Assembly (NCBI GenBank): GCA_964484395.1
Contig: CAZAFM010000022.1
Coordinates: 1-27,760 of the forward strand
Length of the DNA stretch: 27,760 bases
Direction of reading: 5' to 3'
Source of the DNA: an uncultured Campylobacterales bacterium
GTDB lineage: Bacteria > Campylobacterota > Campylobacteria > Campylobacterales > CAZAFM01
In this document: positions 279 through 14,377 of the stretch, in pieces
Layout of the letters: each line of letters opens with the position of its first letter
Numbering within the stretch: position 1 is the first letter of the stretch
Made by a program: the position numbers and the translations under genes
Notes under the pieces: model-generated
What the model was told of the DNA's origin: nothing
Seen by the model: only the letters and a program-made list of their open reading frames with translations
The model's database searches: none

Positions 279-530
279 ATGCTAGTTATAAGCTCAAGTG
301 ATATAGTTAAAAAACCATCTTACATCACACGACCTACAGATATTACATTTGTAGAGGATGCTAAAAAGCATATTACCAAAAGTGTAGTTTTGCCATATGA
401 GCTTTATGAAAAGGTAAAAGAAAAGATAGAAGATGAACTATATCTTATGAACAACAAACAAGCTTTATCTCAAAGTTCTTTTGATGATTTTTTAGAGATA
501 GAAGCTGTAGCAGAAGAGCTTGTAAAATGA
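279..530 (+). CDS. Phd/YefM-family antitoxin (type II TA)
   Basis: An 83-aa acidic protein. The segment TKSVVLPYELYEKVKEKIEDELYLMNNKQALSQS resembles the YefM core ([30 protein letters not shown]). Its stop overlaps the start of the downstream toxin gene (ATGA at 527-530). Confidence 0.55.
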   Translation: MLVISSSDIVKKPSYITRPTDITFVEDAKKHITKSVVLPYELYEKVKEKIEDELYLMNNKQALSQSSFDDFLEIEAVAEELVK

Positions 531-880
531 AAAGAGGTGATATATACCTCGTAAGCTTTGGAAAAAAATACAATAGCGAATTTGGCAAAATCAGACCAGC
601 TTTGATAGTTCAAAACGATATAGCAAATAGAAATATAGACAAAGTAGAGTTCAAGGGTGTCACTGTTATACCAATATCTACAAATCTGCACGGTGGAGAC
701 CTGAGAGTGTATTTATGCAAAAGAGACCTTTTGGAAAAAAATAGTGAGATATGCATAAATGAACTTTGTACTTTAGATATGAGTAGAATAAGTTTAGATA
801 AACTATTGACATCATTGACAAAAGAAGAGACAGATGAAGTAAATATAAAACTTTTAAAGCATTTAGGGATGGTGTCATAA
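527..880 (+). CDS. PemK/MazF-family mRNA interferase toxin
   Basis: The N-terminus MKRGDIYLVSFGKKYNSEFGKIRPALIVQND closely matches Kid/PemK (MERGEIWLVSLDPTAGHEQQGTRPVLIV). The 117-aa length is typical, and the gene is translationally coupled to the upstream antitoxin. Confidence 0.85.
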   Translation: MKRGDIYLVSFGKKYNSEFGKIRPALIVQNDIANRNIDKVEFKGVTVIPISTNLHGGDLRVYLCKRDLLEKNSEICINELCTLDMSRISLDKLLTSLTKEETDEVNIKLLKHLGMVS

Positions 881-906: not shown

Positions 907-958
907 GAGCTGATAGTAGCTTTTGCTAAAACACAAAACAGTCGCAAGGAGTAGCGAG

Positions 959-1336
959 ATGGGACAGGTCAAAACACAGGTCAAAGTCAAAAACTTCATA
1001 AAAGGAAATGAGATAGAGCTAGAGGCGCTAGTGGATACAGGCGCTATGTATATGAGTCTCCCTCGAAGCATCATAGAGAAGCTAGGACTTCAGGAAGGAC
1101 GAAGAGTAAATGTCAGAACTACAAACGGCTCTATACAGAGAAGAGTCTATGAGGGTGCTAGGATATATATACAAGATAGAAGCGTAACCATGGATATACT
1201 AGAGCTTCCAGATGAAGTACCGCCTTTGTTAGGTGTGCTGATACTGGATGCACTTGATTTTATAGTAGACCCCATCACCCAGAAGCTAGCGCCAAACCCA
1301 GAGCATCATGGTGAGTACATAGTGGATATGTTTTGA
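959..1336 (+). CDS. Retropepsin-like (clan AA) aspartic protease, single domain
   Basis: It carries the ALVDTGA catalytic motif (the DTG of retropepsins), is about 125 aa, and has a late hydrophobic GVLILDALDF segment typical of the retropepsin fold. An AAGGA RBS lies 8 nt before the ATG at 959 (the ORF track begins at TTG 923). The gene is clearly GC-richer than its flanks. Confidence 0.7.
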   Translation: MGQVKTQVKVKNFIKGNEIELEALVDTGAMYMSLPRSIIEKLGLQEGRRVNVRTTNGSIQRRVYEGARIYIQDRSVTMDILELPDEVPPLLGVLILDALDFIVDPITQKLAPNPEHHGEYIVDMF

Positions 1337-1572: not shown

Positions 1573-1947
1573 TTGAAAAAATACAAAATAATCCGCTACT
1601 TCTTCGTAGGTGGAATGGCTGCTGTTGTTGATATAACCCTCTTTGCTATATTTGCAAAGTTTTTAAGTTATAATTATCTTGTTGTGGCGTTTTTCTCATT
1701 TATCATAGCTACACTTGTGAACTACCTCATAAGCATAAGGATAGTTTTTGTAAGTGGCACAAGGCATGGTAAGAAAAAAGAGGTTAGCCTTGTATATCTA
1801 GTAAGTGGAGTTGGACTTTTACTAAACCTTCTCATTCTCTATATCCTCATATCTCTACTTGGAGTTGAGAAGATAAGCTCTAAAGTTATTGCGACTGGAC
1901 TTGTGTTTTTCTGGAACTACTATGCTAGGAAGTATTTTATTTTTTAA
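1573..1947 (+). CDS. GtrA-family small membrane protein (polyprenyl-P-sugar flippase-like)
   Basis: 124 aa with 4 predicted TM segments. The N-terminal IRYFFVGGMAAVVDITLF and the C-terminal FFWNYYARKYFIF are typical of the GtrA family (PF04138). Confidence 0.8.
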   Translation: MKKYKIIRYFFVGGMAAVVDITLFAIFAKFLSYNYLVVAFFSFIIATLVNYLISIRIVFVSGTRHGKKKEVSLVYLVSGVGLLLNLLILYILISLLGVEKISSKVIATGLVFFWNYYARKYFIF

Positions 1948-2866
1948 AAAGCTCATAATCTAAAATCTTAAGCTCATACTGCTCTTTGTGAAACTTCACC
2001 ACACTATCTAGTATAAACCCACTAAAAAGTGAAATGACAGATATAAGCATCAGTCCTGTAGCTAGAATAGCTGAAGGGACTTTGTATACATAGCCACTCT
2101 GCATATATTCGATAACTGGCGGTATGCCAAAGCATAGCCCAAGTATAAAAAAAAGTGATGCTAGGAGAGAAAAAAACATCAAAGGTTTGTAATCTTTGAA
2201 AACCCAAAGAATTGTTTTTAGCACCCTAAAACCATCTTTGAAGGTGTTTAACTTTGAGTAGCTACCCTCTGGTCTATCTCTGTACTCTATAGGTATCTCT
2301 TTTATCCTAAACTTTTTATCCAAAGTATGCAGTGTCATCTCTGTCTCTATCTCAAAGCCATCACTTGTTATTGGGATGTTTTTTACAAAACGCCTATTCA
2401 TTACTCTATACCCACTCATTATATCTTTTAGGTCTGAGTTAAAAAGCTTGTTTATAAGTGTCTTTACAAGGTTGTTGCCAAACCCATGCAGTGATCTTTT
2501 GTTCTCTTTAGCATAGGCTCCAGTGCTGTGTCTGTCACCTATCACTATATCTGCTTCATTATTTAATATTGGTTCAAGTAGCTCTCTAGCGTGTTTAGCA
2601 GGATATGTATTGTCACCATCTACCATTATGTATATATCACTATCTATCTCTCTAAAGGCTGTTCTTATGACATTTCCCTTACCCTGTCTTAGCTCTTTTT
2701 TGACAACTACTCCGCAACTACTTGCTATCTCAGAAGTTTTATCAGTTGAGTTGTTATCATAGACGACAATAGTAGCCTCTGGAAGATGCTCCTTGAAGTC
2801 CTCTATCACACTTTTTATAGTTATCTCTTCATTGTAGCATGGTATTATCACTGTTATTTTGCTCAT
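1937..2866 (-). CDS. GT2 polyprenyl-phosphate glycosyltransferase (GtrB/DPM1-like)
   Basis: The N-terminus VIIPCYNEE..VVYDNNSTDKT..DGDNTYP is a GT-A fold signature. The C-terminal TM hairpin (FFSLLASLFFILGLCF) is typical of GtrB/dolichol-P-mannose-synthase-like enzymes. Confidence 0.85.
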   Translation of the reverse strand: MSKITVIIPCYNEEITIKSVIEDFKEHLPEATIVVYDNNSTDKTSEIASSCGVVVKKELRQGKGNVIRTAFREIDSDIYIMVDGDNTYPAKHARELLEPILNNEADIVIGDRHSTGAYAKENKRSLHGFGNNLVKTLINKLFNSDLKDIMSGYRVMNRRFVKNIPITSDGFEIETEMTLHTLDKKFRIKEIPIEYRDRPEGSYSKLNTFKDGFRVLKTILWVFKDYKPLMFFSLLASLFFILGLCFGIPPVIEYMQSGYVYKVPSAILATGLMLISVISLFSGFILDSVVKFHKEQYELKILDYELFKK

Positions 2867-2876
2867 ATCTCCTCTT

Positions 2877-4736
2877 TTACATCAAAGGCTTTAGTGCAAG
2901 ATCTTCACCTTGCTTTTCTACCTTGTATAGGTTAAAAACATTTTGATTTTGCAAGAGTCTTTGGTAGATAGCTTGCACCTTTTGGGATTGAAATGGAAGC
3001 CATACATATTCATGTTCACCCATTTTTTCATAGATTTTATTTATAGGTTGCTGAAAAATAGTAACCTCGTCCGTTGTAAGTCTAGATGGGTACATATCAT
3101 ATCTAAGAAAATTTCTAAAAGAACCATTGTTTGGTACAGGTATGATGGCGTATATATCTGAAGTTTCAGGGATTTTACTTTTTATAGCATTTATGGTTGG
3201 TATTGTCTGAGCTCTAAATGAGTTTAGCTCATTTGCTTTGTAAATGGTTTTTAGGTTTGGAGTTTCTAAGGTGTAGATCAAAAGTGTTGCTAGTGAGACT
3301 ATCAGCAGAGGCTTTATCTCTACTTTGGCTATAGGGCTATCTTCTTTAATATCTACTTTTCTAGCAAGTGGCAGATAGTAGCTAGCTAGAAAAAACATTG
3401 CTGGCATTATGGCGATATTGGTATATCTCACATATGAAGGTATGCGAAATGCATTTCCACCAAATGCTACAAAGTAGCTAAGATAGAGTATCGTAAAATA
3501 CCCTAAAATAATAAACAGCATATATGCTGAGGATAGCAGTACTTCACTTTTTTTATAGCCCTCTTGCCTTCCTGTTAGAGTAGTTATCAGTGACACAATA
3601 ATAAAAGTCACTAAAAACCAAAAAGTCGTAAGCCTAAAACTATCTTTATACTCACCCATAGTGAAGTAGTCAAACTCATTAAATTTCTCAGATACCTCAT
3701 CTTTCGCTATCTGCTGGTCAAAAAATATCTCCCAAAACCTGTCTTTGACTTGAGCGTGAGTATCTTCATCAAGCATCTTTTTATCTGAGAATATATTAGT
3801 AACAATACCTGTAATAGACTGATTACCTTGTTCTATACCCTCTAAGTTAAGTCTTATATCCCAAGTCTTAAAAATCCCAAGTGTTAGTACCCCTAGAACA
3901 ATAGAGATATAAACAAGCTTCTTGTTTTTCTCTATAAAAATATATCTAATGAGCAGCAGTCCAACGCTAGCAGTGGCAAAGTAGAGTCCGACCTCTTTGA
4001 TAAAAGCTATAGCAGTAAGTGGCGCTAGTAGTAAAAAGATAGACTTCTTATCAAATCTATCATAGAGTATCACCATTATAAGCCCTGCAAACATAGCTCC
4101 TACTACATGGTCTACATAGATTTTGTTAAGTCCATGTCCGAAGTTCGCTAGAAAGGCTATCTGAAGTAGAAATGCTAGTACTATCCAGTGAGGCTTCTTG
4201 AAGCTTGTGTTTTCATATATCATCATCGTAGCACTAGCTATGAGTAAAAACTGTGCAAAGTAAGCTCCTCCCTCACTAAAGCCACTTAAAAGCATAGTGA
4301 AGTACTGCCATACAGGAGCACCTGGAACATAGTGAGGGTGAGCCGCTAGTGTGCTTGCATCATATAGTCTATCAGTATACATCATCTCTTTTATAAAAAG
4401 CCCCCAGTGGCTAAACTCATCCCAGAAAAAGAAGTGTGAGTCACGAGAGATAAAAAAGTAGACAAGTGAAAATATAATCATCAAAACTATAGGAGTAGAG
4501 CTAAAAAACTCTATATTTTTCTCTCTATATTTATAAGGTATATACAAAAACAGCGTCACACCTATGGCAAAAACAGCGTAACTAGCCTCTTTGAGTAGTC
4601 CTATCATCGCTAGCAAGACAATAGCAGTCACCATAAAAGAGGTAGATATAAAAACTGCACTTGAAGCCCTAAGCCCAAAGTAGACAAAGATAAAAAGTGC
4701 GTATCCGAAAATAGGCAGTAAAGTCAAAAGTTCCAT
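2877..4736 (-). CDS. GT-C fold integral membrane glycosyltransferase (ArnT/PMT-like)
   Basis: 619 aa, with about 12 TM helices over the first 450 aa and a soluble C-terminal domain. The first loop FFFWDEFSHWG carries a DE-type motif. The gene sits immediately downstream of the GtrB-like GT2. It lacks the WWDYG motif of PglB/STT3. Confidence 0.6.
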   Translation of the reverse strand: MELLTLLPIFGYALFIFVYFGLRASSAVFISTSFMVTAIVLLAMIGLLKEASYAVFAIGVTLFLYIPYKYREKNIEFFSSTPIVLMIIFSLVYFFISRDSHFFFWDEFSHWGLFIKEMMYTDRLYDASTLAAHPHYVPGAPVWQYFTMLLSGFSEGGAYFAQFLLIASATMMIYENTSFKKPHWIVLAFLLQIAFLANFGHGLNKIYVDHVVGAMFAGLIMVILYDRFDKKSIFLLLAPLTAIAFIKEVGLYFATASVGLLLIRYIFIEKNKKLVYISIVLGVLTLGIFKTWDIRLNLEGIEQGNQSITGIVTNIFSDKKMLDEDTHAQVKDRFWEIFFDQQIAKDEVSEKFNEFDYFTMGEYKDSFRLTTFWFLVTFIIVSLITTLTGRQEGYKKSEVLLSSAYMLFIILGYFTILYLSYFVAFGGNAFRIPSYVRYTNIAIMPAMFFLASYYLPLARKVDIKEDSPIAKVEIKPLLIVSLATLLIYTLETPNLKTIYKANELNSFRAQTIPTINAIKSKIPETSDIYAIIPVPNNGSFRNFLRYDMYPSRLTTDEVTIFQQPINKIYEKMGEHEYVWLPFQSQKVQAIYQRLLQNQNVFNLYKVEKQGEDLALKPLM

Positions 4737-4850
4737 AAAAGTCCTGATAAATTTTTTGTGATTTTATAGCAAAAATACTTACTGCTTGCTAATCCTCTAA
4801 CTTTAAAAACTGTATAATCCCATCAATAGTTTTGTAAATCAGGGAAGTAA

Positions 4851-6575
4851 ATGTATATTTTAGGACTTAATGCCTACCATGGTGATAGTAGTGCGTGTAT
4901 TTTTGAAGATGGGGAGCTTGTAGCGGCAATTGAAGAGGAGAGGATTCGTAGGGTTAAGCATTGGGCTGGGTTTCCTAGTGAGGCTATTAGATTCTGCTTA
5001 AAAGAGTGCGGTATAGGGATAGAAGATGTAGATGGTATAGCAATATCGCGCGATCCCAAGGCTAATTTTTCTAAAAAAGTCATTCATAGCCTAAAAAACA
5101 TAGTTAGCTTCAAAACCATAAAAGATAGAATGCTAAATAGCAAAAAAGTGGGTTCTATCAAGAGTGAACTAGCAAGCTCACTAGGTGTCAATGAGACAGA
5201 TATAAATGCTAAAATCTACAATGTAGAGCACCACAGAGCTCATATGGCAAGTGCGTTTTTTGCTAGTCCTTTTGAGAGTTCTGCGATACTCTCTATAGAT
5301 GGATTTGGTGATTTTACCTCTACGATGATAGGCTCTGGTAGGGGATTAGATATAGAAGTACTTGATAGTGTTATCTATCCTCACTCTGTAGGGATTTTTT
5401 ATACTGCTTTTACTCAGTATCTGGGATTTGATAAGTATGGTGATGAGTACAAGGTCATGGGGCTATCTCCTTATGGAGAAGCAAGCTTGGTTGAGAAGAT
5501 AAAGGATGTGCTTATCTTTAAGGACAATGGACTGTTTGAGCTAAACAAAAAATACTTCAAGCATCCAAAAGAGGGTGTATCCATGAGCTGGGAAGATGGT
5601 GATCCATGCATAGAGCCTATTTACTCAGACTATCTTGTAGAGGTTTTTGGTAAGCCAAGAAGCAAAGATGAAGAGCTTACAGAGTATCACAAAAACTTAG
5701 CAGCTTCAGTTCAGAGAGTGACTGAGGAGCTAATATTTCACATACTTGAGCATCTACACAAAAAAACAGGTGAAGAAAACCTCTGCCTAGCAGGAGGTGT
5801 AGCTCAAAACTCAGTAGCAAATGGGAAAATCCTAAAAAACACTAGCTTTAAGTCTATCTATATCCCACCAGCAGGACATGATGCTGGTACAGCTATAGGT
5901 GCTGCTCTTTGGGTGTATAATCATATTTTAAGACAGCCTAGAATTGCTCCTATGTATCATAGCTATTTTGGAAGTAGCTTTAGTGATGAGGAAATTGAGG
6001 AGTTTTTGAGCTCACAAGAAATCCCATATAAAAAGTATAGCGACAATGAGCTTCTTGATGTGGTTACTGATAGGCTTATAGATGCAGGTGTAGTTGGATG
6101 GTTTCAAGGAAGAGCGGAGTTTGGTCCTAGAGCCCTAGGGCATAGGAGTATACTAGCAGATCCAACCCGCGATGATGCAAAAGAGCTACTAAATCTCAAG
6201 ATAAAAAGACGAGAGCCATTTAGACCATTTGCACCATCTATTCTAAAAGAGTTTATGGATGAGTATTTTATGGACTCAGATAGTGTACCTTTTATGGAGA
6301 AGGTTTTTGGCTTTAGAGATGAGAAAAAAGAAGCTCTAAAAGCCGTAGTGCATGTAGATGGGAGTGGTAGACTTCAGAGTGTTGATAGAGAGATAGAGCC
6401 AAAGTACTATGGACTTATAGAGAGATTTTATCAAAAAAGTGGAGTTCCTATTCTTTTAAATACATCTTTTAATGAAAATGAACCTATCGTAAATACTCCA
6501 GAGGAAGCATACAACTGCTTTGCTAGAACAAAAATGGATATGCTTGTTATGGGAAATATTGTAGTAACTAGATGA
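4851..6575 (+). CDS. Carbamoyltransferase of the NodU/CmcH family
   Basis: The N-terminus MYILGLNAYHGDSSACIFEDGELVAAIEEERIRRVKHWAGFP matches the NodU/CmcH consensus (ILGLS.YHDSAAALV.DGEIVAA.EEERFSR.KH). 574 aa, typical two-domain length. An upstream extended -10 TGTATAAT lies at about 4810-4817. Confidence 0.9.
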   Translation: MYILGLNAYHGDSSACIFEDGELVAAIEEERIRRVKHWAGFPSEAIRFCLKECGIGIEDVDGIAISRDPKANFSKKVIHSLKNIVSFKTIKDRMLNSKKVGSIKSELASSLGVNETDINAKIYNVEHHRAHMASAFFASPFESSAILSIDGFGDFTSTMIGSGRGLDIEVLDSVIYPHSVGIFYTAFTQYLGFDKYGDEYKVMGLSPYGEASLVEKIKDVLIFKDNGLFELNKKYFKHPKEGVSMSWEDGDPCIEPIYSDYLVEVFGKPRSKDEELTEYHKNLAASVQRVTEELIFHILEHLHKKTGEENLCLAGGVAQNSVANGKILKNTSFKSIYIPPAGHDAGTAIGAALWVYNHILRQPRIAPMYHSYFGSSFSDEEIEEFLSSQEIPYKKYSDNELLDVVTDRLIDAGVVGWFQGRAEFGPRALGHRSILADPTRDDAKELLNLKIKRREPFRPFAPSILKEFMDEYFMDSDSVPFMEKVFGFRDEKKEALKAVVHVDGSGRLQSVDREIEPKYYGLIERFYQKSGVPILLNTSFNENEPIVNTPEEAYNCFARTKMDMLVMGNIVVTR

Positions 6576-7321
6576 AAGTTTCAATCATAACCTCAGTTTA
6601 TAACAACAAAGAGACTATCGCTGATGCCATAGATTCTGTACTCTCCCAAGATTATAATGATATAGAGTATATAGTCATAGATGGTGGAAGCAGTGATGGG
6701 ACAGTTGAGATTGTAAAAAGCTATGGTGATAAAATCGCTAGGTTTAGTAGCCAAAAAGATAGAGGTATATATGATGGACTAAATCGCGGTATTGAGCAAG
6801 CAGGTGGAGATATTGTAGGTTTTTTACATAGTGATGATATATATGCAAAAAGCTCCATTATAAGTGAAGTAGTAGAGCGCTTTGAAAAAGGCTGTATGGG
6901 AGTCTATGGAGATCTTGTCTATACTACAAAAAGTGACACAGATAGAATTATTAGATATTGGAAAAGTAAGGAGTTTGACATATCACTTCTAAAAAAGGGA
7001 TGGATGCCACCACATCCGACACTTTTTCTAAAAAAAGAGATATATGATAGAGTAGGTGGCTTTGACCTTGAGTTTAAAATAGCTGCTGATTATGACTTTA
7101 TGCTTAGAGTGCTAAAAGAAAATCCAAATGTCTGCTATATGGACAAAGTCCTATATAAAATGCGACTTGGTGGAGAGAGTAATAAAAGCCTCAAAAACAT
7201 CATAAACAAAAGCAAAGAGGACTACAGAGCTTTGAAGAAAAATGAGATTGGTGGTGTTTGTACGCTTCTAAGTAAAAACTTCAGTAAGCTAGGTCAGTTT
7301 ATAAAAAAGAGTGTGGAGTAG
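6572..7321 (+). CDS. GT2 family glycosyltransferase
   Basis: The segment VSIITSVYNNKETIADAIDSVLSQDY..IEYIVIDGGSSDGT is a classic GT-A N-terminus with DxD-like HSDD. It overlaps the carbamoyltransferase stop by 4 nt (ATGA). Confidence 0.85.
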   Translation: MKVSIITSVYNNKETIADAIDSVLSQDYNDIEYIVIDGGSSDGTVEIVKSYGDKIARFSSQKDRGIYDGLNRGIEQAGGDIVGFLHSDDIYAKSSIISEVVERFEKGCMGVYGDLVYTTKSDTDRIIRYWKSKEFDISLLKKGWMPPHPTLFLKKEIYDRVGGFDLEFKIAADYDFMLRVLKENPNVCYMDKVLYKMRLGGESNKSLKNIINKSKEDYRALKKNEIGGVCTLLSKNFSKLGQFIKKSVE

Positions 7322-7324
7322 GGC

Positions 7325-8338
7325 TTGGTATATAGTGCTTTTTTAGTTTTTGTATTTTTGCTTTCACTTAGTATGACTTACCTATCTGTGCGCTTTAAAG
7401 AGAGGCTAGCTATCATAGACACACCAAATGAAAGAAGTATGCACAAAACTCCTAAGCCTCGCTCAGGTGGGATAGCAATAGTTATAGCATTTGTGATAGG
7501 CACACTTTTGATGTTTGGTCCCTCTTCTAGCTCCTCTTTTTTGCTTCCACTGCTTATAGTTTTTATCCTTGGACTTGTAGATGATATAAGGCATGTCTCT
7601 GCAAAGGTCAAGCTACTTGTCATTTCACTCTCTGCTGCCCTTCTTTTTTATATGGGTTATGATATACAAAACTTTGGTGTGTTTTTAGGCTATGAGGTTG
7701 AGCTTTATTATGTTGTAGCACTCATCTTCTGTGCTGTAGCTGTAGGTGGTTTTGTAAATGCGGTAAATCTCATAGATGGACTTGATGGTCTTGCATCAGT
7801 TATATCTATCATCATACTAGCTGCATTTGTCTATATAGGTTATAAGTATAGTGATGATTTTTTGCTTTCTGTTAGCCTTTTGATGATATTTTCTATTTTG
7901 GGATTTCTAGTTTTTAATTGGTTTCCTTCAAAGATTTTTATGGGCGATTCTGGAAGTCTAAGTATAGGCTTTGTCATAGCTGTTATATCTATCTATAGTA
8001 TAAAGCAAGAGTACATCACTGCTATTTCAGTTCTGCTTCTAGCAGCTATACCTATCCTAGATACGCTTATTGTCATGGTGCGCAGAATCATAAGCGGACA
8101 AAACCCCTTTAGTCCAGATAGGACACATATACACCATATCATACTCAAGCAGCAACATAATGACATTAGAAAAACAGTTTTTATCCTTGCGCTTATGCAG
8201 ATGTTTTTCTCATACATAGGTCTTGGGTTTAAAGCTAGAGATGATATGCTTATTCTTGTTTTATATATCTTGGTTTTTGTGGTTTTTTATATGCTTCTAA
8301 CCCCAAGGTACAAAAGAAAATACAACCCAAAAAACTAG
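7325..8338 (+). CDS. WecA/MraY-family polyprenyl-phosphate HexNAc-1-phosphate transferase
   Basis: It has the NAVNLIDGLDGLA motif and a later FMGDSGSL motif, with about 10 TM helices. TTG start per the ORF track (an ATG at about 7373 is an alternative start). Confidence 0.85.
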   Translation: MVYSAFLVFVFLLSLSMTYLSVRFKERLAIIDTPNERSMHKTPKPRSGGIAIVIAFVIGTLLMFGPSSSSSFLLPLLIVFILGLVDDIRHVSAKVKLLVISLSAALLFYMGYDIQNFGVFLGYEVELYYVVALIFCAVAVGGFVNAVNLIDGLDGLASVISIIILAAFVYIGYKYSDDFLLSVSLLMIFSILGFLVFNWFPSKIFMGDSGSLSIGFVIAVISIYSIKQEYITAISVLLLAAIPILDTLIVMVRRIISGQNPFSPDRTHIHHIILKQQHNDIRKTVFILALMQMFFSYIGLGFKARDDMLILVLYILVFVVFYMLLTPRYKRKYNPKN

Positions 8339-8377: not shown

Positions 8378-8911
8378 ATGGGCGCTCTTGCATATGATGA
8401 AAGGTACACCAGAGATGACTATAGACACTGGGAGGGTGATTGGGAGCTGATTGAGGGAAATGCCTATGCAATGGCACCTTCACCTATGTTTTCACATCAA
8501 AATCTTGTTGTAAAAATATCTAGAGTCATGGATGAGGCACTTGATGGATGTGAGAGATGCATGGTGGCTATAGAGATGGACTGGGATGTGAGTGAAGACA
8601 CTGTGTTGAAGCCTGATGTGATGGTGGTTTGTGATCAAGTGGGTGAGAGGGTTGTAAAAGCTCCACTCATAGTCTTTGAAGTTATCTCAAAAAGTAGTGT
8701 CAAAAGAGATGAGATACTAAAGTTTGAGCTATATAAAGATGAGGGCGTAAAATACTACGCCTTAGTCTATCCAGATATGAAAAAAGCAAAACTCTATCTG
8801 CTAAAAGATGACTCATATCAAAAGGTTGGAGATTTTATAAACGAACAGTATGAGTTCAAGCTTGAAGCTTGCAATCTGGGATTTGACTTTAGCAGGATAT
8901 GGAGAAAGTAA
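8378..8911 (+). CDS. Uma2-family (DUF820) PD-(D/E)XK putative endonuclease
   Basis: LIEGNAYAMAPSPMFSHQNLV, then PDVMVV, then VFEVISKS, give the PD...E.K arrangement characteristic of Uma2/DUF820 proteins. Confidence 0.7.
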   Translation: MGALAYDERYTRDDYRHWEGDWELIEGNAYAMAPSPMFSHQNLVVKISRVMDEALDGCERCMVAIEMDWDVSEDTVLKPDVMVVCDQVGERVVKAPLIVFEVISKSSVKRDEILKFELYKDEGVKYYALVYPDMKKAKLYLLKDDSYQKVGDFINEQYEFKLEACNLGFDFSRIWRK

Positions 8912-8931: not shown

Positions 8932-9735
8932 TTAGCTTATGTTTATTACTATAGAAGCCTCAGGAGATAGAACTCTAAAAGCAGCACTTTGAGTTAAGAA
9001 AAGAGATATTGAGTCTTTGTTCTCTTTTTCAAACCCCACACTTACATCAAATCCGCTATAAAACTTATAGTCTCCACCTCTTTGAGATATGACAAGGGCT
9101 TTGTCGTTTCCTACTGCATTTGATACAATTATACTGTTTTGTCCTAGAAGTTGCTCTATTTTGTGTTTGACACTCATAGCACCTACTGTCTCAACTACTA
9201 GCTTGGAGAAGGTTTGATTTGAAACTACAATCTTGAAGCCCCCTTCTACAAAGCTATCATCAAAAATTTCAAGAGCTTTAGCAGTAGCTGCAAGCATCTC
9301 TTTTGAGCTTGATGCTGCAATTGGTTTATGTTCCATACTTTCAAGCAATCCTGTTATATTGGCTTTTTTAATTCCATCTAGTATCATAGAGTTTTCAGCT
9401 ACTGCAAACTCATTAGCAGCTTTTTGAAGAACCTCATTATCAAAGTCCTCTAAGCCTCTTTTTATCTCATCTATAACCGTCTTTGGTAGGTCAAAATCAT
9501 ACCTCATCTCTACCATACTTATTGGCTCTCTTGCACATATTGTAGTGCCGTTTTTGCTACTTATCTTAGCTAGCTTGCCAGTTGGTATAGCATCTGTTTC
9601 AAAGCTAAAGCTCTCATCAAAGTCCACTACACTTCTAAGTTTAAGTCTTTTAGCTAGCAGTTCTTCAAGTTCACCATCAATTACACTCCATACCTCCGTT
9701 GATATAGGAGCTTTTTCTCTGTTCAAAAATTCCAT
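8932..9735 (-). CDS. Family 1 encapsulin nanocompartment shell protein (linocin M18-like)
   Basis: Near-colinear similarity to the Thermotoga maritima encapsulin: MEFLNREKAP.S.EVW.ID at the N-terminus and ISQRGGDYKFYSGFDVSVGFEKENKDSISLFLTQSAAFRVLSPEASIVI at the C-terminus (versus [49 protein letters not shown]). 267 aa. Confidence 0.9.
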   Translation of the reverse strand: MEFLNREKAPISTEVWSVIDGELEELLAKRLKLRSVVDFDESFSFETDAIPTGKLAKISSKNGTTICAREPISMVEMRYDFDLPKTVIDEIKRGLEDFDNEVLQKAANEFAVAENSMILDGIKKANITGLLESMEHKPIAASSSKEMLAATAKALEIFDDSFVEGGFKIVVSNQTFSKLVVETVGAMSVKHKIEQLLGQNSIIVSNAVGNDKALVISQRGGDYKFYSGFDVSVGFEKENKDSISLFLTQSAAFRVLSPEASIVINIS

Positions 9736-9745
9736 CTACTCTCCT

Positions 9746-10105
9746 TTATGAGTTTTTTCCTATTTTTAGTGATCCAGTTTTTTTAGTAGGTGCGCTCTCT
9801 TGCTCTGAGTCATCTTCTCCATGAGATGTAAGCGCCCCCTCTCTAAACAAAAACTCTCTAAGCATAGCATCCCAAGTAGGTGAGTTGCGTCTAAGCCACT
9901 CTAGTCCCATGCATGCGTGCTCAATCTCCTCATCTCTATTATGCTCCATAAGAGCCTTTGCTTCAGCATTGTTTGTCGCAGCTGCTCTTTGGTTGTACCA
10001 ATCAACTGCTTCAAGCTCCTCTATAGTACTCTGTATAACCCTATGGTAGTCTATGACATCTTCACCCAAGAGGCTGATATCTTCATGTAAGCCTTCATGC
10101 GCCAT
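9746..10105 (-). CDS. Encapsulated ferritin-like cargo protein (EncFtn) with a C-terminal targeting peptide
   Basis: Ferritin-like four-helix motifs (EELEAVDWYNQR .. EHNRDEEIEHACMGLEWL). The C-terminus KKTGSLKIGKNS fits the GSLxIG encapsulin cargo-loading peptide. The gene lies 10 nt upstream of the shell gene on the same strand. Confidence 0.8.
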   Translation of the reverse strand: MAHEGLHEDISLLGEDVIDYHRVIQSTIEELEAVDWYNQRAAATNNAEAKALMEHNRDEEIEHACMGLEWLRRNSPTWDAMLREFLFREGALTSHGEDDSEQESAPTKKTGSLKIGKNS

Positions 10106-10184: not shown

Positions 10185-10213
10185 TGACAATTAGATATGA
10201 TTTTAGTAGTATG
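10185..10213 (+). promoter_or_regulatory. Sigma-70-type promoter of the Fur-family gene (TTGACA-17-TAGTAT)
   Basis: TTGACA at 10185-10190 and TAGTAT at 10208-10213, about 35 nt upstream of the ATG at 10248. Confidence 0.35.
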
Positions 10214-10247
10214 TGTACTTCACTATAAAATATACAAAAGAGCTGAT

Positions 10248-10661
10248 ATGAATGATTTTAACCTGTCTTTAAAGAAAAGCGGACTGAAAGTTACTCCTCA
10301 AAGAGTTATGATACTTGATGAACTACAAAAAGGTGGACACCTAAATGTAGATGAGATATATGAGAAGATAAAACCACTCTACTCATCTATGTCACTAGCA
10401 ACGGTGTATAAAAACATATCCTCACTACTAGAAGCTAAGATAATAAAAGAGGTCTATATGCCAGCATCAAAACAAAAGTATGAGTTAAGACAAAAAGCTC
10501 ATGCTCACTTTTTCTGCTCAGAGTGTGGAAATATAAGAGATGTGGATGTAGATGAAACTAGCTTAAAAGAAGCATTTAAAGGAAGTGAAGATATAGAGGA
10601 CTTCTCTATGTTATATAGTGGTGTGTGTTTGGAGTGCAAAAGCACCCCAAAAGAAGCGTAG
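10248..10661 (+). CDS. Fur-family metalloregulator, PerR-like
   Basis: LKVTPQRVMILDEL..SLATVYKNISSL forms the winged helix. Two CxxC pairs (CSECG, CLECKS) are present. The protein resembles Campylobacter PerR (ATPQRLCVL..SISLATVYKNL). The ATG at 10248 is preferred over the track start 10197, which would fall inside the promoter. Confidence 0.85.
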   Translation: MNDFNLSLKKSGLKVTPQRVMILDELQKGGHLNVDEIYEKIKPLYSSMSLATVYKNISSLLEAKIIKEVYMPASKQKYELRQKAHAHFFCSECGNIRDVDVDETSLKEAFKGSEDIEDFSMLYSGVCLECKSTPKEA

Positions 10662-10663
10662 GC

Positions 10664-10939
10664 TTAGAAGCCGTCGTTTCTTGGAGCTCTTGGCTCTCTT
10701 GGTTTAGCTGGGTTAACCTTTAGGTTTCTACCCATAAACTCTTTACCAGATATTGCATCTATAGCTTTATCTGCTTCTGTGTCATCAATCATCTCTACAA
10801 AGCCAAAACCTCTAAATTTTCCGCTTTCTCTATCATTTATGAACTTAACTGAATCAACTTCACCATATTGAGCAAAAAGATCACTCAACTCTTCTTCTGT
10901 GGCCTTAAACGGTATGTTACCGACATAGATACTCTTCAA
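10664..10939 (-). CDS. RRM-domain RNA-binding protein
   Basis: RNP1/RNP2 motifs are present: IYVGNIPF and KFRGFGFVEM. The likely start is TTG at 10939 (giving MKSIYVGN), with GGAG 11 nt upstream. The track extends the ORF to 10984. Confidence 0.8.
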   Translation of the reverse strand: MKSIYVGNIPFKATEEELSDLFAQYGEVDSVKFINDRESGKFRGFGFVEMIDDTEADKAIDAISGKEFMGRNLKVNPAKPREPRAPRNDGF

Positions 10940-11021
10940 AACAAATCTCCGAAAAAATAAAATCCAAGCTTTTTGGGCTTGCAAGAGTATTGTATCATAA
11001 AAAAAGAAAATTTAAACAAAT

Positions 11022-11468
11022 TTATCTTTTTTCTTTAAGAGATTTGCTTATATGCTTAGATATCTCCTCTTTAAAGTCTGGATTTTTCTTAACAAGTGTC
11101 TTTTGAAGCTCTATTAGAGTGTTTTCATCTGTGTCATGTCTTTTAGAAAAACTCTCTAAAAAATTAAATATTTTTTTGACCTTCTCTTGAACCTCTTTTG
11201 ATTTAAAGTCTTTATCTTTTTTGTTTGGGAAGTCTGAGAAAAATTTTAAAAAAGATTCTGCTGCTATGTTGTATTCATGTTTGGTTATATTATCATTGTT
11301 GACATAAGCTATTAGTTCATCTATATCTTTTATCTCTGTGACTTTTGGCTTAGCTTTTGGTGTTAAAATGTAGTTTAGCAAAAAAGAGAACCCAGTTATA
11401 ACAAAAACAAGAAAAGCCAAGATGCCAAGTAGCATCCAGCTATTTATGTAGTACGAAAATGTGTTCAA
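11022..11468 (-). CDS. Hypothetical N-terminally membrane-anchored protein
   Basis: A single N-terminal TM helix (WMLLGILAFLVFVITGFSFLL) precedes a Lys/Glu-rich soluble region. Its start abuts the stop of the upstream FTR-rhodanese gene, suggesting an operon. Confidence 0.45.
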   Translation of the reverse strand: MNTFSYYINSWMLLGILAFLVFVITGFSFLLNYILTPKAKPKVTEIKDIDELIAYVNNDNITKHEYNIAAESFLKFFSDFPNKKDKDFKSKEVQEKVKKIFNFLESFSKRHDTDENTLIELQKTLVKKNPDFKEEISKHISKSLKEKR

Positions 11469-12185
11469 CTACTCTCCTCTTGTTATTTCACCATCATAAC
11501 TTATGATACCATAGGTTAGGTTTCCAACACTATATCCCATATCTTTTAGAACTCTTTGGCAGTAGCTACTTCTACTTCCTACATGACAGTATAGTATGAT
11601 TTTTTTATCTTTATGCTTTTCTAGTTTTTCCATTGATGTATAAAAAGATGTAGTTGGAATAAGCTCATCAGTACCTTCTATCCTAGAAGCTATATACTCC
11701 ATCCACTCTCTGACATCTACTAGGATAAAATCTATCAAGTTTTTCTTTCTTGCTTCTAGTAGAGCTCCTAGCTCTTCACCACTTAACTGGTCTTTGTGAA
11801 GTATGGCCTCCATCTCCTCTTGTGTAGGCTCTCTTGTGTGTGAGTGGATGACCGCATCAGCACTCTCTATTAAGCCTTCTTCTTTTGCATAAGCAGGCGT
11901 GCAAAAAATCCCACAGTGACATGAACCACTATTTGGTATCTCATCATTTATTGCTGGTTTGCAAGGACATATTCTATCTTCATCTGTATTTGTTACAAAA
12001 AAACATGGACAGTAGAACTTATTGTAGATTACCTTGTTTCTAGCAAGTCCTTGCTTGACGGACTCGACTATCTCTTTATCAGGGTTAAAAGCAAACCCAA
12101 AGTTTTCTATTACCTTTTCTACAAAAACCTCTGTTTTTTTAAAAGCCTCTTTGAACTCTTGTGAGTTAGGGTCAACCTTTTGCAT
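11469..12185 (-). CDS. Ferredoxin-thioredoxin reductase catalytic-subunit-like domain fused to a rhodanese domain
   Basis: The N-terminal half has the CPC..CPC..CHC cysteine arrangement (FYCPCFFVTNTDEDRICPCKPAINDEIPNSGSCHCGIF) characteristic of FTR catalytic chains. The C-terminal half is rhodanese-like, with the active-site loop ILYCHVGSRSSYC. Confidence 0.7.
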   Translation of the reverse strand: MQKVDPNSQEFKEAFKKTEVFVEKVIENFGFAFNPDKEIVESVKQGLARNKVIYNKFYCPCFFVTNTDEDRICPCKPAINDEIPNSGSCHCGIFCTPAYAKEEGLIESADAVIHSHTREPTQEEMEAILHKDQLSGEELGALLEARKKNLIDFILVDVREWMEYIASRIEGTDELIPTTSFYTSMEKLEKHKDKKIILYCHVGSRSSYCQRVLKDMGYSVGNLTYGIISYDGEITRGE

Positions 12186-12281: not shown

Positions 12282-13154
12282 CTATGCTTTAGCCTCTCTG
12301 ATTCTCTCTAGTATGTCTATATGATGTAGTTCTTGTTCTTCTACAAATCTCAGTAGGTTTTTGAAGTCGTCATATTTAACTCTTAGAGCTATCTCTTTCA
12401 TCTCCTCTACCTCTTTTTTCTCATCTTCGATATTGTTGTCTATAAACTCTTTTAAGCTCTTTACCATATACTCCTCTTTTGGAGGGTTTTTAGGCATTCT
12501 TAGCACTCCTAGGGAGCTCATCATAGAAGCATAATATTTCATATGAGAGAGTGACTCATGCATAAGGTCTTTTAGCATCTCAGCTGACCATCTATCTTCA
12601 AGATGTGTAATAAGGAAGAAAAAAGAGATGACACTTGAGTACTCTTTGTCAAGTAGGTTTTCGAGTGAGTTTATAATGAACTCTGCATCATAGGGTGTCA
12701 TTTCAAGATTTTTTGCTACTTTATCTGAGCTACCACCGTATGAGTTGTACATGTGAAGCTCATTTTTGTTTTGAGTCTTTTCTACTTTGTGCAAGAAGTA
12801 TGACTCATCACTTTTAAACCTGTTTGCAAGTACACAACTCTCTCCATAGGTTCCTATTATTACTTTTAGCTCATCTTGTAACTCCTCTAGCATTGTATGT
12901 GCATCACTACTCAAAGGCTCTATTTGCATATCAAAATCATATATTTTAGGAGCAGGGGTGTCACTATCTTTGTTTTCATAGTCAAACTCTCTGTACTCTT
13001 TAACTATCTCATTAGCAAGCCACATCATATGCCTAAACTCTATATCAGAAAAACTCTCCAAGCTTTTTGAGATATCCGCATCCTTTGTAGTAATACTTCC
13101 TATAAGTAGTCTCATCCACAAAGAGTGTTTTTTTCTAAATAGTTCTACTTTCAT
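12282..13154 (-). CDS. Hypothetical ferritin-like (di-iron four-helix) protein with two lobes
   Basis: Two halves each carry E...H-type motifs (EFRHMMWLANEI, LEDRWSAEMLKDLMHE, EEQELHHIDILERI). No signal peptide or targeting peptide was seen. Confidence 0.35.
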   Translation of the reverse strand: MKVELFRKKHSLWMRLLIGSITTKDADISKSLESFSDIEFRHMMWLANEIVKEYREFDYENKDSDTPAPKIYDFDMQIEPLSSDAHTMLEELQDELKVIIGTYGESCVLANRFKSDESYFLHKVEKTQNKNELHMYNSYGGSSDKVAKNLEMTPYDAEFIINSLENLLDKEYSSVISFFFLITHLEDRWSAEMLKDLMHESLSHMKYYASMMSSLGVLRMPKNPPKEEYMVKSLKEFIDNNIEDEKKEVEEMKEIALRVKYDDFKNLLRFVEEQELHHIDILERIREAKA

Positions 13155-13189: not shown

Positions 13190-14377
13190 TTAGCTTATCT
13201 GTTTTGATTGTATCATAAAACCTTCATTTTTGAGTATCTCCATATTTAAATTCTTAAAATCTTCATAAGTTATCTCAAAAGATTTTCCCTGCATAGAGTT
13301 AAACCCCTCTTTTCCCATAGAGACTCTTTTTTGTTCATCATCTACTAGCTCTGCTATTTTTTGAAGCCATATATTTTTTTCTACTTCTATACAGTAGCCA
13401 CTCTCTCCATCTCTTACTATTGTTTTAGGACCACCTATGTTACTAACTATGGCAGGCTTTCCGCTTGCTTGAGCCTCCATAACAACCTGTCCTAGAGTAT
13501 CTGTAACTGAAGGAAAGAGAAATATATCTGAGTTTGCGTAGATTTTAGATAGCTCTTCTCCGCCTTTATAGCCTAGTAGATGTATGCCTCTGCTTTTTAG
13601 CTCCTCTTTTTTTTCAAGTATTTTTCCCTCACCACAGCAGATTAGCTCTATTTTTTTGCTACTTTTTTCTCTGAGTTCATCCCATATTTCTAGTAAAAAT
13701 GGAAAGTTCTTCTCTTTTGTTAGTCTGCCTACATATAGAAGCTTTATAGATTCAACATCTATTTCGTAGTTTTGCCAAAATGCCTCCTCTTTATACTTCA
13801 TATGAAAAGACTTTGTATCTATACCAGCTTTTAGTACAAAAAGTCTATCTTCTGGCACTTTTATATCATTAAGTAGGGTTGAATAGTACTCATTTGACCT
13901 AGAGTAAACTCTCTCAAACTGCTTATAGAAGTATCTCATAAACTTAGTTGTTCCTTTTTCAATAAAGCGACTTTTGGTATTATCATACATATATGAAGGA
14001 AAGTCAGTGTGGTATATGGCTACTTTTTTAGCTTTTAGTCTATTTGCTATCCTAAGCCCCATCATACCTATAGGACCTGGTGTTGAGATAACGACTATAT
14101 CTGGATTTATAATGGTTGCTCTTTTTTTTAGTTCAAAGTAGTTTGGTATTGCTATATCTAGCTCTTTGTAGTAGGGCATCCCTGTTTTGAAGATGGGTTT
14201 TATATTTATGATGTTGTCTAGCTTTTTGCAGTAGGACTTGTTTGTTGAGGTTATTACATATAGACTTCCTTCTTCGCTACTACTAGCTAGGTCTTGGATA
14301 AATCTTGATACTCCATTTGCATCACAGACTGTATCTGAGAAGAGACATATTGTTGGATTTTTAACTGGATTTTGCAC
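13190..14377 (-). CDS. GT4 (GT-B fold, group 1) glycosyltransferase
   Basis: The C-terminal domain has GRLTKEKN..EAQASGKPAIVSNIGG (the E-x7-E-like donor-binding region). GTG start with a strong AGGGGG RBS 5 nt upstream (plus strand CCCCCT at 14384-14389). Confidence 0.8.
   Translation of the reverse strand: MQNPVKNPTICLFSDTVCDANGVSRFIQDLASSSEEGSLYVITSTNKSYCKKLDNIINIKPIFKTGMPYYKELDIAIPNYFELKKRATIINPDIVVISTPGPIGMMGLRIANRLKAKKVAIYHTDFPSYMYDNTKSRFIEKGTTKFMRYFYKQFERVYSRSNEYYSTLLNDIKVPEDRLFVLKAGIDTKSFHMKYKEEAFWQNYEIDVESIKLLYVGRLTKEKNFPFLLEIWDELREKSSKKIELICCGEGKILEKKEELKSRGIHLLGYKGGEELSKIYANSDIFLFPSVTDTLGQVVMEAQASGKPAIVSNIGGPKTIVRDGESGYCIEVEKNIWLQKIAELVDDEQKRVSMGKEGFNSMQGKSFEITYEDFKNLNMEILKNEGFMIQSKQIS

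Follow-up and report, generated by a model that had tools for sequence, protein, structure and literature searches.

To our knowledge, enzymes of the ferredoxin:thioredoxin reductase (FTR) type are the only known disulfide reductases in which an iron–sulfur cluster participates directly in disulfide cleavage, and the members of which we are aware act on proteins of the thioredoxin fold. In the FTR of Synechocystis the cluster ligands are Cys55, Cys74, Cys76 and Cys85, and the redox-active disulfide is formed by Cys57 and Cys87. The catalytic subunit (FTRc) requires a partner subunit, which in the canonical enzyme is the variable subunit FTRv (PF02941). In two ferredoxin:disulfide reductases (FDRs) the catalytic domain is joined to a redox partner: that of Methanosarcina acetivorans (4tpu) carries a C-terminal rubredoxin as its electron-input module, and 7pwe of Desulfotalea psychrophila carries an N-terminal partner of the glutaredoxin fold. 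The substrates of the Methanosarcina enzyme are reportedly thioredoxin- or glutaredoxin-like proteins.

Rhodaneses, too, have been described together with partners. In the CoADR-rhodanese type (Npsr of Shewanella, 3nt6/3ntd; CoAPR of Enterococcus, 8a56; CoADR-RHD of B. anthracis, 3icr; and the NAD-dependent persulfide reductase of A. fulgidus, 6pfz) a catalytic rhodanese follows an N-terminal FAD/NAD(P)H reductase module of ~450 aa. In the persulfide dioxygenase (PDO)-rhodanese fusions (BpPRF, 5ve3–5ve5) a rhodanese with a six-residue catalytic loop is combined with a second sulfur-processing activity, which oxidizes sulfur. The rhodaneses GlpE (E. coli, 1gn0) and PspE (2jtq) are single-domain proteins, and the Trx/TrxR pair is separate from them; thioredoxin is reportedly the sulfur acceptor of GlpE, making the two in effect a two-protein thiosulfate reductase.

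Domain structure and conservation of the fusion

The gene that we describe here lies in a 27,760-nucleotide stretch of DNA from an uncultured Campylobacterales bacterium (hereafter the window) and encodes both kinds of domain in one protein. Its features are the following.

11469..12185, minus strand: fusion gene, 238 aa, ATG start (ORF and Pfam)
11877..12143, minus strand: FTRc/FDR-like putative [4Fe-4S] disulfide-reductase domain (FeThRed_B), aa 15–103 (Pfam)
11913..12011, minus strand: Cys motif C59-P-C61 ... C73-P-C75 ... C89-H90-C91 (sequence; invariant in 121 homologues)
11826..11846, minus strand: junction motif H114-x-H116-S-R-G-L between the domains, HSHTREP in the query (conservation)
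11505..11750, minus strand: Rhodanese domain, aa 146–227 (Pfam)
11568..11588, minus strand: rhodanese catalytic loop C200-H-V-G-S-R205-S206 of the six-residue sulfurtransferase type (sequence)

The gene product is a soluble, cytoplasmic protein of two domains, one of the FTRc/FDR family and one a single rhodanese whose loop is of the sulfurtransferase type. In particular, the Pfam profile FeThRed_B (PF02943) matched the fusion with 95.3 bits (E 2.8e-27, profile positions 2–94 of 106; cut-off 22 bits) and Rhodanese (PF00581) with 47.7 bits (E 2.3e-12; cut-off 22.2 bits), and both matches far exceed chance. The sequence-only reading had taken the N-terminal half for an FTR-catalytic-subunit-like domain and had proposed these two profiles as a check; both scored well above their cut-offs, and no other Cys-rich family outscored FeThRed_B in the profile search. 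The same assignment is borne out by fold, since the N-domain fits the FTRc fold in profile and fold comparison and the C-domain fits the rhodanese fold. An AlphaFold2 model of the protein is compact (pLDDT 95.1, pTM 0.82) and contains a short, structured and conserved inter-domain linker; because of this linker and of the two-domain pTM, the model suggests that the domains are held in a fixed mutual arrangement. An identical protein sequence is present in a Campylobacterales MAG at NCBI. An Rfam scan of the window matched no RNA element.

The translation of the Cys motif reads YC59PC61-FFVTNTDEDRI-C73PC75-KPAINDEIPNSGS-C89H90C91, with spacers of 11 and 13 residues, confirming the CPC-X11-CPC-X13-CHC spacing that had been read from the DNA and set against the X16/X8 of plants. 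All six cysteines and H90 are invariant in a conservation set of 121 homologues with 54–84% identity to the query; a seventh Cys lies at position 95. By homology to FTR, C59, C73, C75 and C89 would be the cluster ligands and C61 and C91 the redox-active pair. In the rhodanese half, where an intact CHVGSRS loop had also been claimed and is upheld by sequence and Pfam, the catalytic Cys200 is present in 120 of the 121 sequences (99%), and G203, S204, R205 and S206 are invariant. That the active-site residues of both domains are conserved together across these sequences argues that both are probably catalytically competent.

Two further conserved elements lie outside the predicted active sites. 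H114 and H116 of the junction motif are 98% conserved among close homologues, and the motif is absent from the distant fusion members P0122–P0126. C209, nine residues past C200, is 97% conserved; four close homologues lack it, as do the distant members P0123, P0124 and P0126. We considered a second metal or relay site made up of C95, H114, H116 and C209 and rejected it: each residue is 97–98% conserved, with exceptions that fall in different sequences and show no co-variation, and the family can do without the site, as the HxH is missing from distant fusion members and C209 from three of four.

Comparison of the N-domain with structures of its family indicated that, by sequence, it is nearer to archaeal and bacterial FDRs than to plant FTRc: the closest PF02943 structures were 4tpu (E 1.2e-9) and 7pwe (E 5.8e-8), as against 1.4e-3 for plant FTRc (7bzk), and the family profile keeps this ranking (2.9e-6 for plant FTRc). 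The plant and cyanobacterial FTRc, which differ in spacing (X16/X8), nevertheless share with the fusion the active-site His in CHC. Both FDRs have CYC (Tyr) with X14/X12, whereas the fusion has CHC (His) with X11/X13, and in place of the C-terminal rubredoxin of 4tpu or the N-terminal glutaredoxin-fold partner of 7pwe it bears a C-terminal rhodanese. In all 129 rhodanese-fused sequences found the second spacer is 13 residues and is followed by CHC; the first spacer is X11, 12, 17, 18 or 19 across the family. The distantly related stand-alone domains mostly have the X14/X12 of 4tpu and 7pwe, and these domains and structures carry Y, H, E, D or F at the position of the motif His. Because of the CHC and X11/X13 of the query against the CYC and X14/X12 of 4tpu and 7pwe, the rhodanese-fused N-domain is, judged by its motif, a subtype of its own and not an FDR orthologue. 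The NCBIfam model NF041072 (FtrB family double-selenoprotein) scored 64.6 bits, under its equivalog cut-off of 160, and carries Sec at the redox pair, where the fusion has Cys at both positions.

The rhodanese half has Npsr, CoAPR, CoADR-RHD and 6pfz among its structural and sequence matches. These proteins resemble the fusion in their order of reductase and catalytic rhodanese; however, the reductase module of the fusion is an unrelated, putative [4Fe-4S] FTR-like domain of ~100 aa, Pfam found no Pyr_redox match in it, and the alignment to 3nta, 4ocg and 6pfz is confined to their rhodanese halves (query aa 147–230). The likeness is thus one of analogy in the presumed mechanism, the reductase halves not being homologous. 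The BpPRF fusions share the six-residue-loop rhodanese and the presence of a second sulfur-processing activity, but the partner attached in our protein is of the ferredoxin-type reductase kind and not an oxidizing PDO. Unlike GlpE and PspE, finally, the fusion has its reductase covalently attached.

Distribution, gene neighborhood and the downstream membrane protein

Relatives of the fusion occur in at least 528 species-level genomes, and the best 80 of these are all from Campylobacterota. The hosts include Sulfurimonas, Sulfurovum, Arcobacteraceae, Nitratifractor and Nitrosophilus, that is, sulfur-cycling, ferredoxin-rich Campylobacterota. NCBI and JGI already name the fusion by its domains and, because it is widespread and so named, the domain architecture is not new; the public names are domain names only, in agreement with the earlier statement that its function is unassigned. 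A full-text literature search found no paper characterizing the fusion, and Balsera 2013 (Planta) may already list the architecture. Separately encoded halves were considered as support for the partnership and set aside. Many seeming stand-alone halves look like fragments of the fusion, and the stand-alone relatives of the N-domain P0131 and P0138 have no adjacent rhodanese gene; it is therefore the fusion alone that speaks for a partnership of FTR-like domain and rhodanese.

The gene context varies. At 76 loci the neighbors include rplI-hslV-hslU-era (12 of 76) and rarA (10 of 76), and further neighbors are sprT-like, argG, fba, ruvB and ribF; the gene context that we examined gave no signal of sulfur-metabolism genes. 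When 12 proteins of the window were compared by tblastn with 80 genome loci, none of them lay beside the fusion, and a family-wide functional operon was rejected, as the neighbors are varied and of the housekeeping kind. In the window and in the related locus L081, genes for a PerR-like Fur regulator, an EncFtn/encapsulin iron-storage pair and a weakly rubrerythrin-like protein lie near the fusion. This oxidative-stress neighborhood is confined to the lineage of the window and is gone in L084 and in all 80 genome loci. The encapsulin shell of the window is of family 1 with EncFtn cargo. (Acinetobacter has been reported to possess a rhodanese associated with an encapsulin; PMC10925157.) We judged a link between fusion and encapsulin to be coincidental: the two are also adjacent in L081, but not in L084, L085 or any of the 80 genome loci.

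Downstream of the fusion gene lie the following features.

11474..11478, minus strand: Shine-Dalgarno-like AGGAG inside the 3' end of the fusion gene, 5 nt upstream of the TTG (sequence)
11022..11468, minus strand: 148-aa single-pass membrane protein of no known family, TTG start (ORF, sequence)
11364..11438, minus strand: predicted transmembrane helix, about aa 11–35 of the 148-aa protein (hydropathy)
10953..10981, minus strand: terminator-like hairpin (CAAGC-N7-GCTTG, then a T-run) past the membrane-protein gene (sequence)

The next gene had been read as encoding a single-pass membrane protein that starts at the stop codon of the fusion, and this holds: the stop codon TAG (11471..11469) and the TTG (11468..11466) abut with zero spacer. 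The protein has one hydrophobic segment (peak 19-residue Kyte–Doolittle window 2.68), preceded by no K/R and followed by four within 17 residues; because K/R flank the transmembrane segment only on its C-terminal side, the sequence suggests that the C-terminal domain may lie on the cytoplasmic side. Pfam and NCBIfam gave nothing above cut-off for this protein. The terminator-like hairpin lies upstream of the TTG at about 10939, which is the likelier start of the RRM gene. In L081, L084 and L085 the gene that directly follows the fusion encodes an orthologue of 144 aa (37–38% identity), and relatives among 5.8 billion proteins amount to only two 90%-identity clusters; beside the fusion at the 80 genome loci the membrane protein was found in none. 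It is thus a lineage-specific add-on and not a core part of the system, and of the proposed operon the bicistronic appearance in the window stands, but it does not extend to the family.

A candidate ferredoxin-driven persulfide reductase

Our preferred reading, to which we assign a probability of roughly 0.4, is that, by analogy, the fusion would reduce the persulfide of its own rhodanese at the expense of ferredoxin, in line with the ferredoxin-dependent persulfide reduction that the sequence-only reading had suggested. C59, C73, C75 and C89 would hold a [4Fe-4S] cluster beside the redox-active C61–C91 disulfide. Ferredoxin reduced by the 2-oxoacid:ferredoxin oxidoreductases of the hosts would deliver two electrons, singly, through the cluster, as in FTR and FDR, and the C61/C91 dithiol so formed would have the fused rhodanese as its target. 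There, Cys200 would be loaded with sulfane sulfur, the donor being thiosulfate, polysulfide or the persulfide of a protein or of a low-molecular-weight compound, to give Cys200-SSH, which the exposed Cys61 would attack; H2S would be freed or sulfide handed to a biosynthetic acceptor, and ferredoxin would re-reduce the C61–C91 disulfide. We favor this reading because both domains are identified by profile and by fold, because their active sites are conserved together and the model suggests a fixed packing of the two, because 7pwe and 4tpu set a precedent for an FDR joined to a partner and the CoADR-rhodanese proteins one for a reductase joined to a rhodanese, because the hosts are sulfur-cycling and rich in ferredoxin, and because the N-domains of the fusions form a distinct putative subtype (X13 and CHC). 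Against it speak the gene context, with its lack of a sulfur-metabolism signal, and the stand-alone relatives P0131 and P0138 of the N-domain, which have no rhodanese gene beside them. The fusion might then be viewed as the iron–sulfur equivalent of the persulfide reductases of the CoADR-rhodanese type, which depend on NAD(P)H/FAD, and as a third kind of FDR joined to a redox partner, after those with rubredoxin (Methanosarcina) and glutaredoxin (Desulfotalea).

Other readings of the same protein have to be weighed against this one. The rhodanese persulfide could feed biosynthetic thiolation (tRNA thionucleosides, molybdopterin or thiamin thiocarboxylates, Fe–S assembly), with the FTR-like domain resolving a rhodanese–acceptor (acyl-)disulfide or freeing sulfide for a [4Fe-4S]-dependent thiolase; we regard this as unlikely, given that moeB, thiS, moaD, mnmA, ttuA and thiI are not recurrently adjacent and that the resemblance to the rhodanese domain of MoeZ is of a generic kind (40 bits, with the cut-off at 647). 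Alternatively, the fusion might be an ordinary ferredoxin:thioredoxin (glutaredoxin-like) reductase of a separate substrate, to which the rhodanese is an accessory such as an FTRv-like cluster shield or a sensor. The FTR-type His90, kept where 4tpu and 7pwe have Tyr, would fit such an enzyme, as would the need of an FTR catalytic subunit for a partner together with the finding that no ORF of at least 90 aa in the 27.8-kb window matches FeThRed_A (FTRv). However, the strict conservation of Cys200 and of the G203–S206 loop would be needless for a mere shield and none of about 90 loci shows linkage between the fusion and a gene for thioredoxin, which makes this reading rather improbable. An arsenate, selenite or other chalcogen or oxyanion reductase, or a protein for selenium delivery, built on a Cdc25/Acr2-like rhodanese fold seems highly improbable: the loop is a six-residue CxxGxR, the length typical of sulfurtransferases, and not the seven-residue Cx5R of phosphatases and arsenate reductases, and ars and sel genes were not found nearby.

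The two remaining alternatives draw on the surroundings of the gene. We give little probability to a self-repairing sulfurtransferase, in which the FTR-like domain would keep the rhodanese Cys reduced (against sulfenylation or disulfide formation) under oxidative stress in these microaerophiles. Such a role would suit the oxidative-stress neighbors in the window and L081 and the presence of C209 as a well-conserved second Cys, but those neighbors are lineage-confined and C209 is itself dispensed with in several close and distant homologues. It is also doubtful that the fusion is tethered to the membrane in an obligate complex with the 148-aa protein. The abutting stop and start codons with a Shine-Dalgarno sequence ahead of the start point in this direction, as does the retention of the pair in four members of the lineage, among them L084 with its altered flanks on both sides; the distant member P0124 is likewise flanked by a membrane protein, DUF4395, which is, however, unrelated to the 148-aa protein. 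Against a complex of this kind, the partner is absent from all of the 80 best genome loci, has no detectable homologues beyond the lineage and no conserved Cys or His, and evolves much faster than the fusion, which retains 72–74% identity in the same genomes (L081 and L084) in which the partner retains 37–38%.

If the preferred reading of a ferredoxin:persulfide reductase is true, a rhodanese as built-in partner would add persulfide (sulfane) sulfur to the protein disulfides on which FTR chemistry acts. As a small, soluble protein with a confident model, the fusion is open to standard anaerobic biochemistry. In the metabolism of S0 by Sulfurovum, rhodanese-like sulfurtransferases have been implicated and assigned no role (PMC13609358, PMC10045233). 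At least several hundred Campylobacterota species carry the fusion, and bacteria of this group dominate oxygen-minimum zones as well as sulfidic vents, caves and sediments. More tentatively, it may represent a ferredoxin-powered class of sulfane-sulfur (persulfide/polysulfide/thiosulfate) reductases that works through an FTR-type [4Fe-4S]/disulfide center in place of NAD(P)H/FAD, is core to environmental Campylobacterota and joins rTCA/2-oxoacid:ferredoxin electron flow to the production of sulfide in the cytoplasm. In that case, the fusion could fill a missing cytoplasmic step in the reduction or disproportionation of S0, or in sulfur assimilation, in vent and sediment bacteria.

Domain identity and conservation of the fusion

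The fusion gene and its associated features lie at the following positions in the window.

11469..12185 (-): fusion ORF, 238 aa, ATG start
11826..11846 (-): junction motif H-x-H-S-R-G-L, fusion aa 114-120, nearly invariant among close homologues, missing in the most distant fusion members
11468..11022 (-): 148-aa ORF, start TTG 11468..11466, no spacer after the fusion stop TAG (11471..11469)
10981..10953 (-): hairpin, then T-run, 3' of the 148-aa gene

Translation of the fusion gene gives YC59PC61-X11-C73PC75-X13-C89H90C91, followed by C95, in the N-terminal half and YC200HVGSRS, followed by C209, in the C-terminal half, the same motifs and spacings as claimed in the sequence-only reading. In a Pfam profile search, FeThRed_B (PF02943) matched residues 15-103 (95.3 bits, E 2.8e-27) and Rhodanese (PF00581) residues 146-227 (47.7 bits, E 2.3e-12), both far over the gathering cut-offs. 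[quoted passage not shown] By its sequence, then, the protein belongs to both the PF02943 superfamily and the rhodanese family.

We searched PDB sequences with the N-terminal half and with a family profile. In both searches the nearest match was 4tpu, the ferredoxin:disulfide reductase (FDR) of Methanosarcina acetivorans, whose FDR-type domain is fused to rubredoxin (E 1.2e-9 in the single-sequence search), followed by 7pwe of Desulfotalea psychrophila, whose FDR-type domain is fused to glutaredoxin (E 5.8e-8), and much more weakly by plant FTRc, 7bzk (E 1.4e-3). The fusion is nevertheless no orthologue of the characterised FDRs, differing from their CYC motif and spacing, and no canonical FTRc, whose Cys spacing it does not share. 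In every rhodanese-fused protein among the retrieved sequences, the second spacer is 13 residues long and is followed by CHC, and the first spans 11, 12, 17, 18 or 19 residues, whereas 4tpu, 7pwe and most of the distantly related stand-alone FDR-like domains have X14/X12 spacing, the mid-position being Y, H, E, D or F; the X13/CHC signature also occurs in a small number of stand-alone sequences, some of which are fragments of fusions. The fixed spacer and CHC argue that the rhodanese-fused domain is a distinct subtype, whose overall sequence is FDR-like and whose retained histidine is FTR-like.

Among 121 homologues (54-84% identical to the window fusion), C59, C61, C73, C75, C89, H90 and C91 are invariant, as are G203, S204, R205 and S206 of the rhodanese loop, and C200 is kept in 120; purifying selection therefore acts jointly on both active sites. 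C95, H114, H116 and C209 are each 97-98% conserved, their rare substitutions falling in different sequences. The HxH motif is absent from distant fusion members, and C209 from three of the four (P0123, P0124 and P0126). We therefore do not assign these four residues to an additional metal or relay site required by the family.

The membrane-protein partner and neighbouring genes

As the sequence-only reading had noted, the 148-aa gene starts at the stop codon of the fusion. An AGGAG 5 nt upstream of its TTG lies within the end of the fusion gene, making translational coupling plausible. On its upstream side the fusion is preceded by a 96-nt AT-rich spacer, before which the preceding gene ends with a possible hairpin and T-run; together with the hairpin and T-run downstream of the 148-aa gene, this suggests, at the level of consensus elements, a two-gene transcription unit. 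The 148-aa protein has a single strongly hydrophobic segment (~aa 11-35), and its Lys and Arg residues are confined to the part C-terminal to that segment. This distribution suggests an anchor in N-out, C-in orientation, whose helical domain, rich in lysine and glutamate, would be cytoplasmic.

Profile searches of Pfam and NCBIfam assigned the 148-aa protein to no family, and a search of 5.8 billion proteins returned no homologue outside the window's lineage. Within that lineage, a 144-aa orthologue follows the fusion by 1-26 nt in loci L081, L084 and L085 (fusion identity 69-74%) and is retained in L084 despite changes on both flanks; the L081 and L084 orthologues are merely 37-38% identical to the window protein. 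At 63-65% fusion identity, rplI is already the downstream gene. These observations point to a recent, fast-evolving, lineage-specific addition.

Other features of the window are listed below.

527..880 (+) and 923..1336 (+): MazF/PemK-like toxin, then 137-aa ORF
1573..8338: glycan-synthesis cluster (GtrA-like, GT2, 619-aa ORF, carbamoyltransferase, GT2, WecA-like Glycos_transf_4)
8378..8911: Uma2-family endonuclease, after the glycan-synthesis cluster
8932..10105 (-) and 10197..10661 (+): encapsulin shell and EncFtn cargo genes; divergent Fur-family regulator
10664..10984 (-): RRM-type RNA-binding protein (NF058537 Rbp_regulator, E 3.5e-32)
12282..13154 (-): 290-aa protein, sub-threshold rubrerythrin match (E 0.005)
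25026..27584 (-): flagellin, 852 aa, unusually long, with Flagellin_N and Flagellin_C ends

The EncFtn ferritin-like cargo gene (TIGR04535, E 8.6e-40) precedes that of the family-1 shell (NF041155, E 1.1e-53), and the divergent regulator scores best as PerR; the region resembles an island for iron storage and peroxide stress. This arrangement recurs only in L081; in L085 the RRM and Fur genes remain without the encapsulin pair, and all of these genes are missing from L084. The RRM gene probably starts 15 codons downstream of its listed TTG, at another TTG (~10939) with GGAG upstream (product MKSIYVGN...); the hairpin and T-run (10981..10953) would then lie between genes. The gene for the 290-aa protein, which has no NCBIfam match, directly follows a GT4 glycosyltransferase gene (13190..14377), an order that L081 and L085 keep irrespective of the fusion. 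Pfam matched neither the central ~630 aa of the flagellin nor the 619-aa ORF (2877..4736, -). The 137-aa ORF shows retropepsin-like aspartyl-protease matches and a weak MazE match; as a toxin-antitoxin locus, this pair is unusual.

Distribution and genomic context

Scanning one genome per species turned up at least 528 stretches that encode a relative; the best 80 (49-62% identity) are all from Campylobacterota, obvious MAG mislabels aside, and include Sulfurimonas, Sulfurovum, Nitratifractor and the Arcobacteraceae Malaciobacter, Halarcobacter and Poseidonibacter. Nitrosophilus alvini also encodes the fusion. When 1.84 billion representative proteins, selected out of about 15 billion, were clustered at 50%, the full-length fusions fell into only ~6 clusters. 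The family is thus narrow yet populous. Annotation pipelines already recognise the architecture, since NCBI names close cluster-mates 'ferredoxin-thioredoxin reductase catalytic domain-containing protein' and JGI names one of them 'ferredoxin-thioredoxin reductase catalytic subunit/rhodanese-related sulfurtransferase'. A full-text search, whose reach did not extend to key FTR/FDR evolution papers, found no paper characterising the fusion; as far as could be found, it is visible in annotation and has no experimental study.

In the 80 genome loci, the fusion adjoins none of 12 genes taken from the window, among them the 148-aa gene. In the 76 with a called fusion ORF, the immediate neighbours are a divergent ATPase (16), downstream rplI, then mostly hslV-hslU (12), a SprT-like gene (12), downstream rarA (10) and argG (5), with fba, ruvB or a permease elsewhere; more distant members adjoin secG/frr/miaA, ribF or aconitase/coaD/tmk. 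No recurring sulfur, thioredoxin or ferredoxin gene was next to the fusion in the loci inspected, and in its behaviour the gene resembles a core gene that stands alone. Among the contexts found, just one suggests a dedicated module of three genes, that of P0124, a distant member (308 aa, 41% identity), at L096 3547..5876, where a DUF4395 membrane protein is encoded tightly upstream and a 311-aa DUF302 protein tightly downstream, just before petABC. P0124 itself has a C-terminal coiled extension. A stand-alone FTRc-like relative, P0138 (117 aa, within L094 551..4561), is 51% identical to the fusion N-domain and shares an X12/X13 CHC signature; it is flanked by an HTH_8 regulator and an ABM-monooxygenase-like gene, with nuoA-D-like complex I genes immediately downstream.

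Proposed function and alternatives

In Synechocystis FTR, Cys55/74/76/85 ligate the cluster and Cys57-Cys87 form the disulfide. Because of homology with FTR, C59, C73, C75 and C89 of the fusion should ligate a [4Fe-4S] cluster, the redox-active disulfide should lie between C61 and C91, and H90 should act as acid/base residue. Cys200 would take sulfane sulfur from thiosulfate, polysulfide or persulfides, the ferredoxin-driven N-domain would reduce the resulting persulfide, and sulfide would then be released or handed on. We consider this the most economical reading, at a tentative probability of about 0.4, because FDR domains occur fused to redox partners and reductase-rhodanese fusions are persulfide reductases. 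Hit descriptions identify Npsr, CoAPR and A. fulgidus 6pfz as persulfide reductases with a disulfide-reductase module N-terminal to a catalytic rhodanese; the CoADR-rhodanese enzymes resemble the fusion in its proposed function, although their reductase halves are unrelated. Hosts of the fusion depend on 2-oxoacid:ferredoxin oxidoreductases and have a lifestyle based on reduced sulfur (e.g. PMC13609358), so both substrates are at hand.

The closest rival keeps this chemistry and has a housekeeping thiolation pathway receive the sulfur, which the housekeeping neighbours would suit; we regard it as unlikely. An ordinary ferredoxin:thioredoxin reductase with a merely accessory rhodanese is a somewhat poorer candidate, given the strict conservation of the rhodanese loop. 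Self-repair of the fusion under oxidative stress seems improbable, the oxidative-stress gene context being lineage-specific, and arsenate or selenium chemistry highly improbable, the loop being of the six-residue sulfurtransferase type. As far as it could be tested, the sequence-only interpretation is supported; the ferredoxin-dependent persulfide reduction or sulfur trafficking that it suggested would be a reasonable reading. The fusion is common across an ecologically important phylum, and its proposed function is readily testable.
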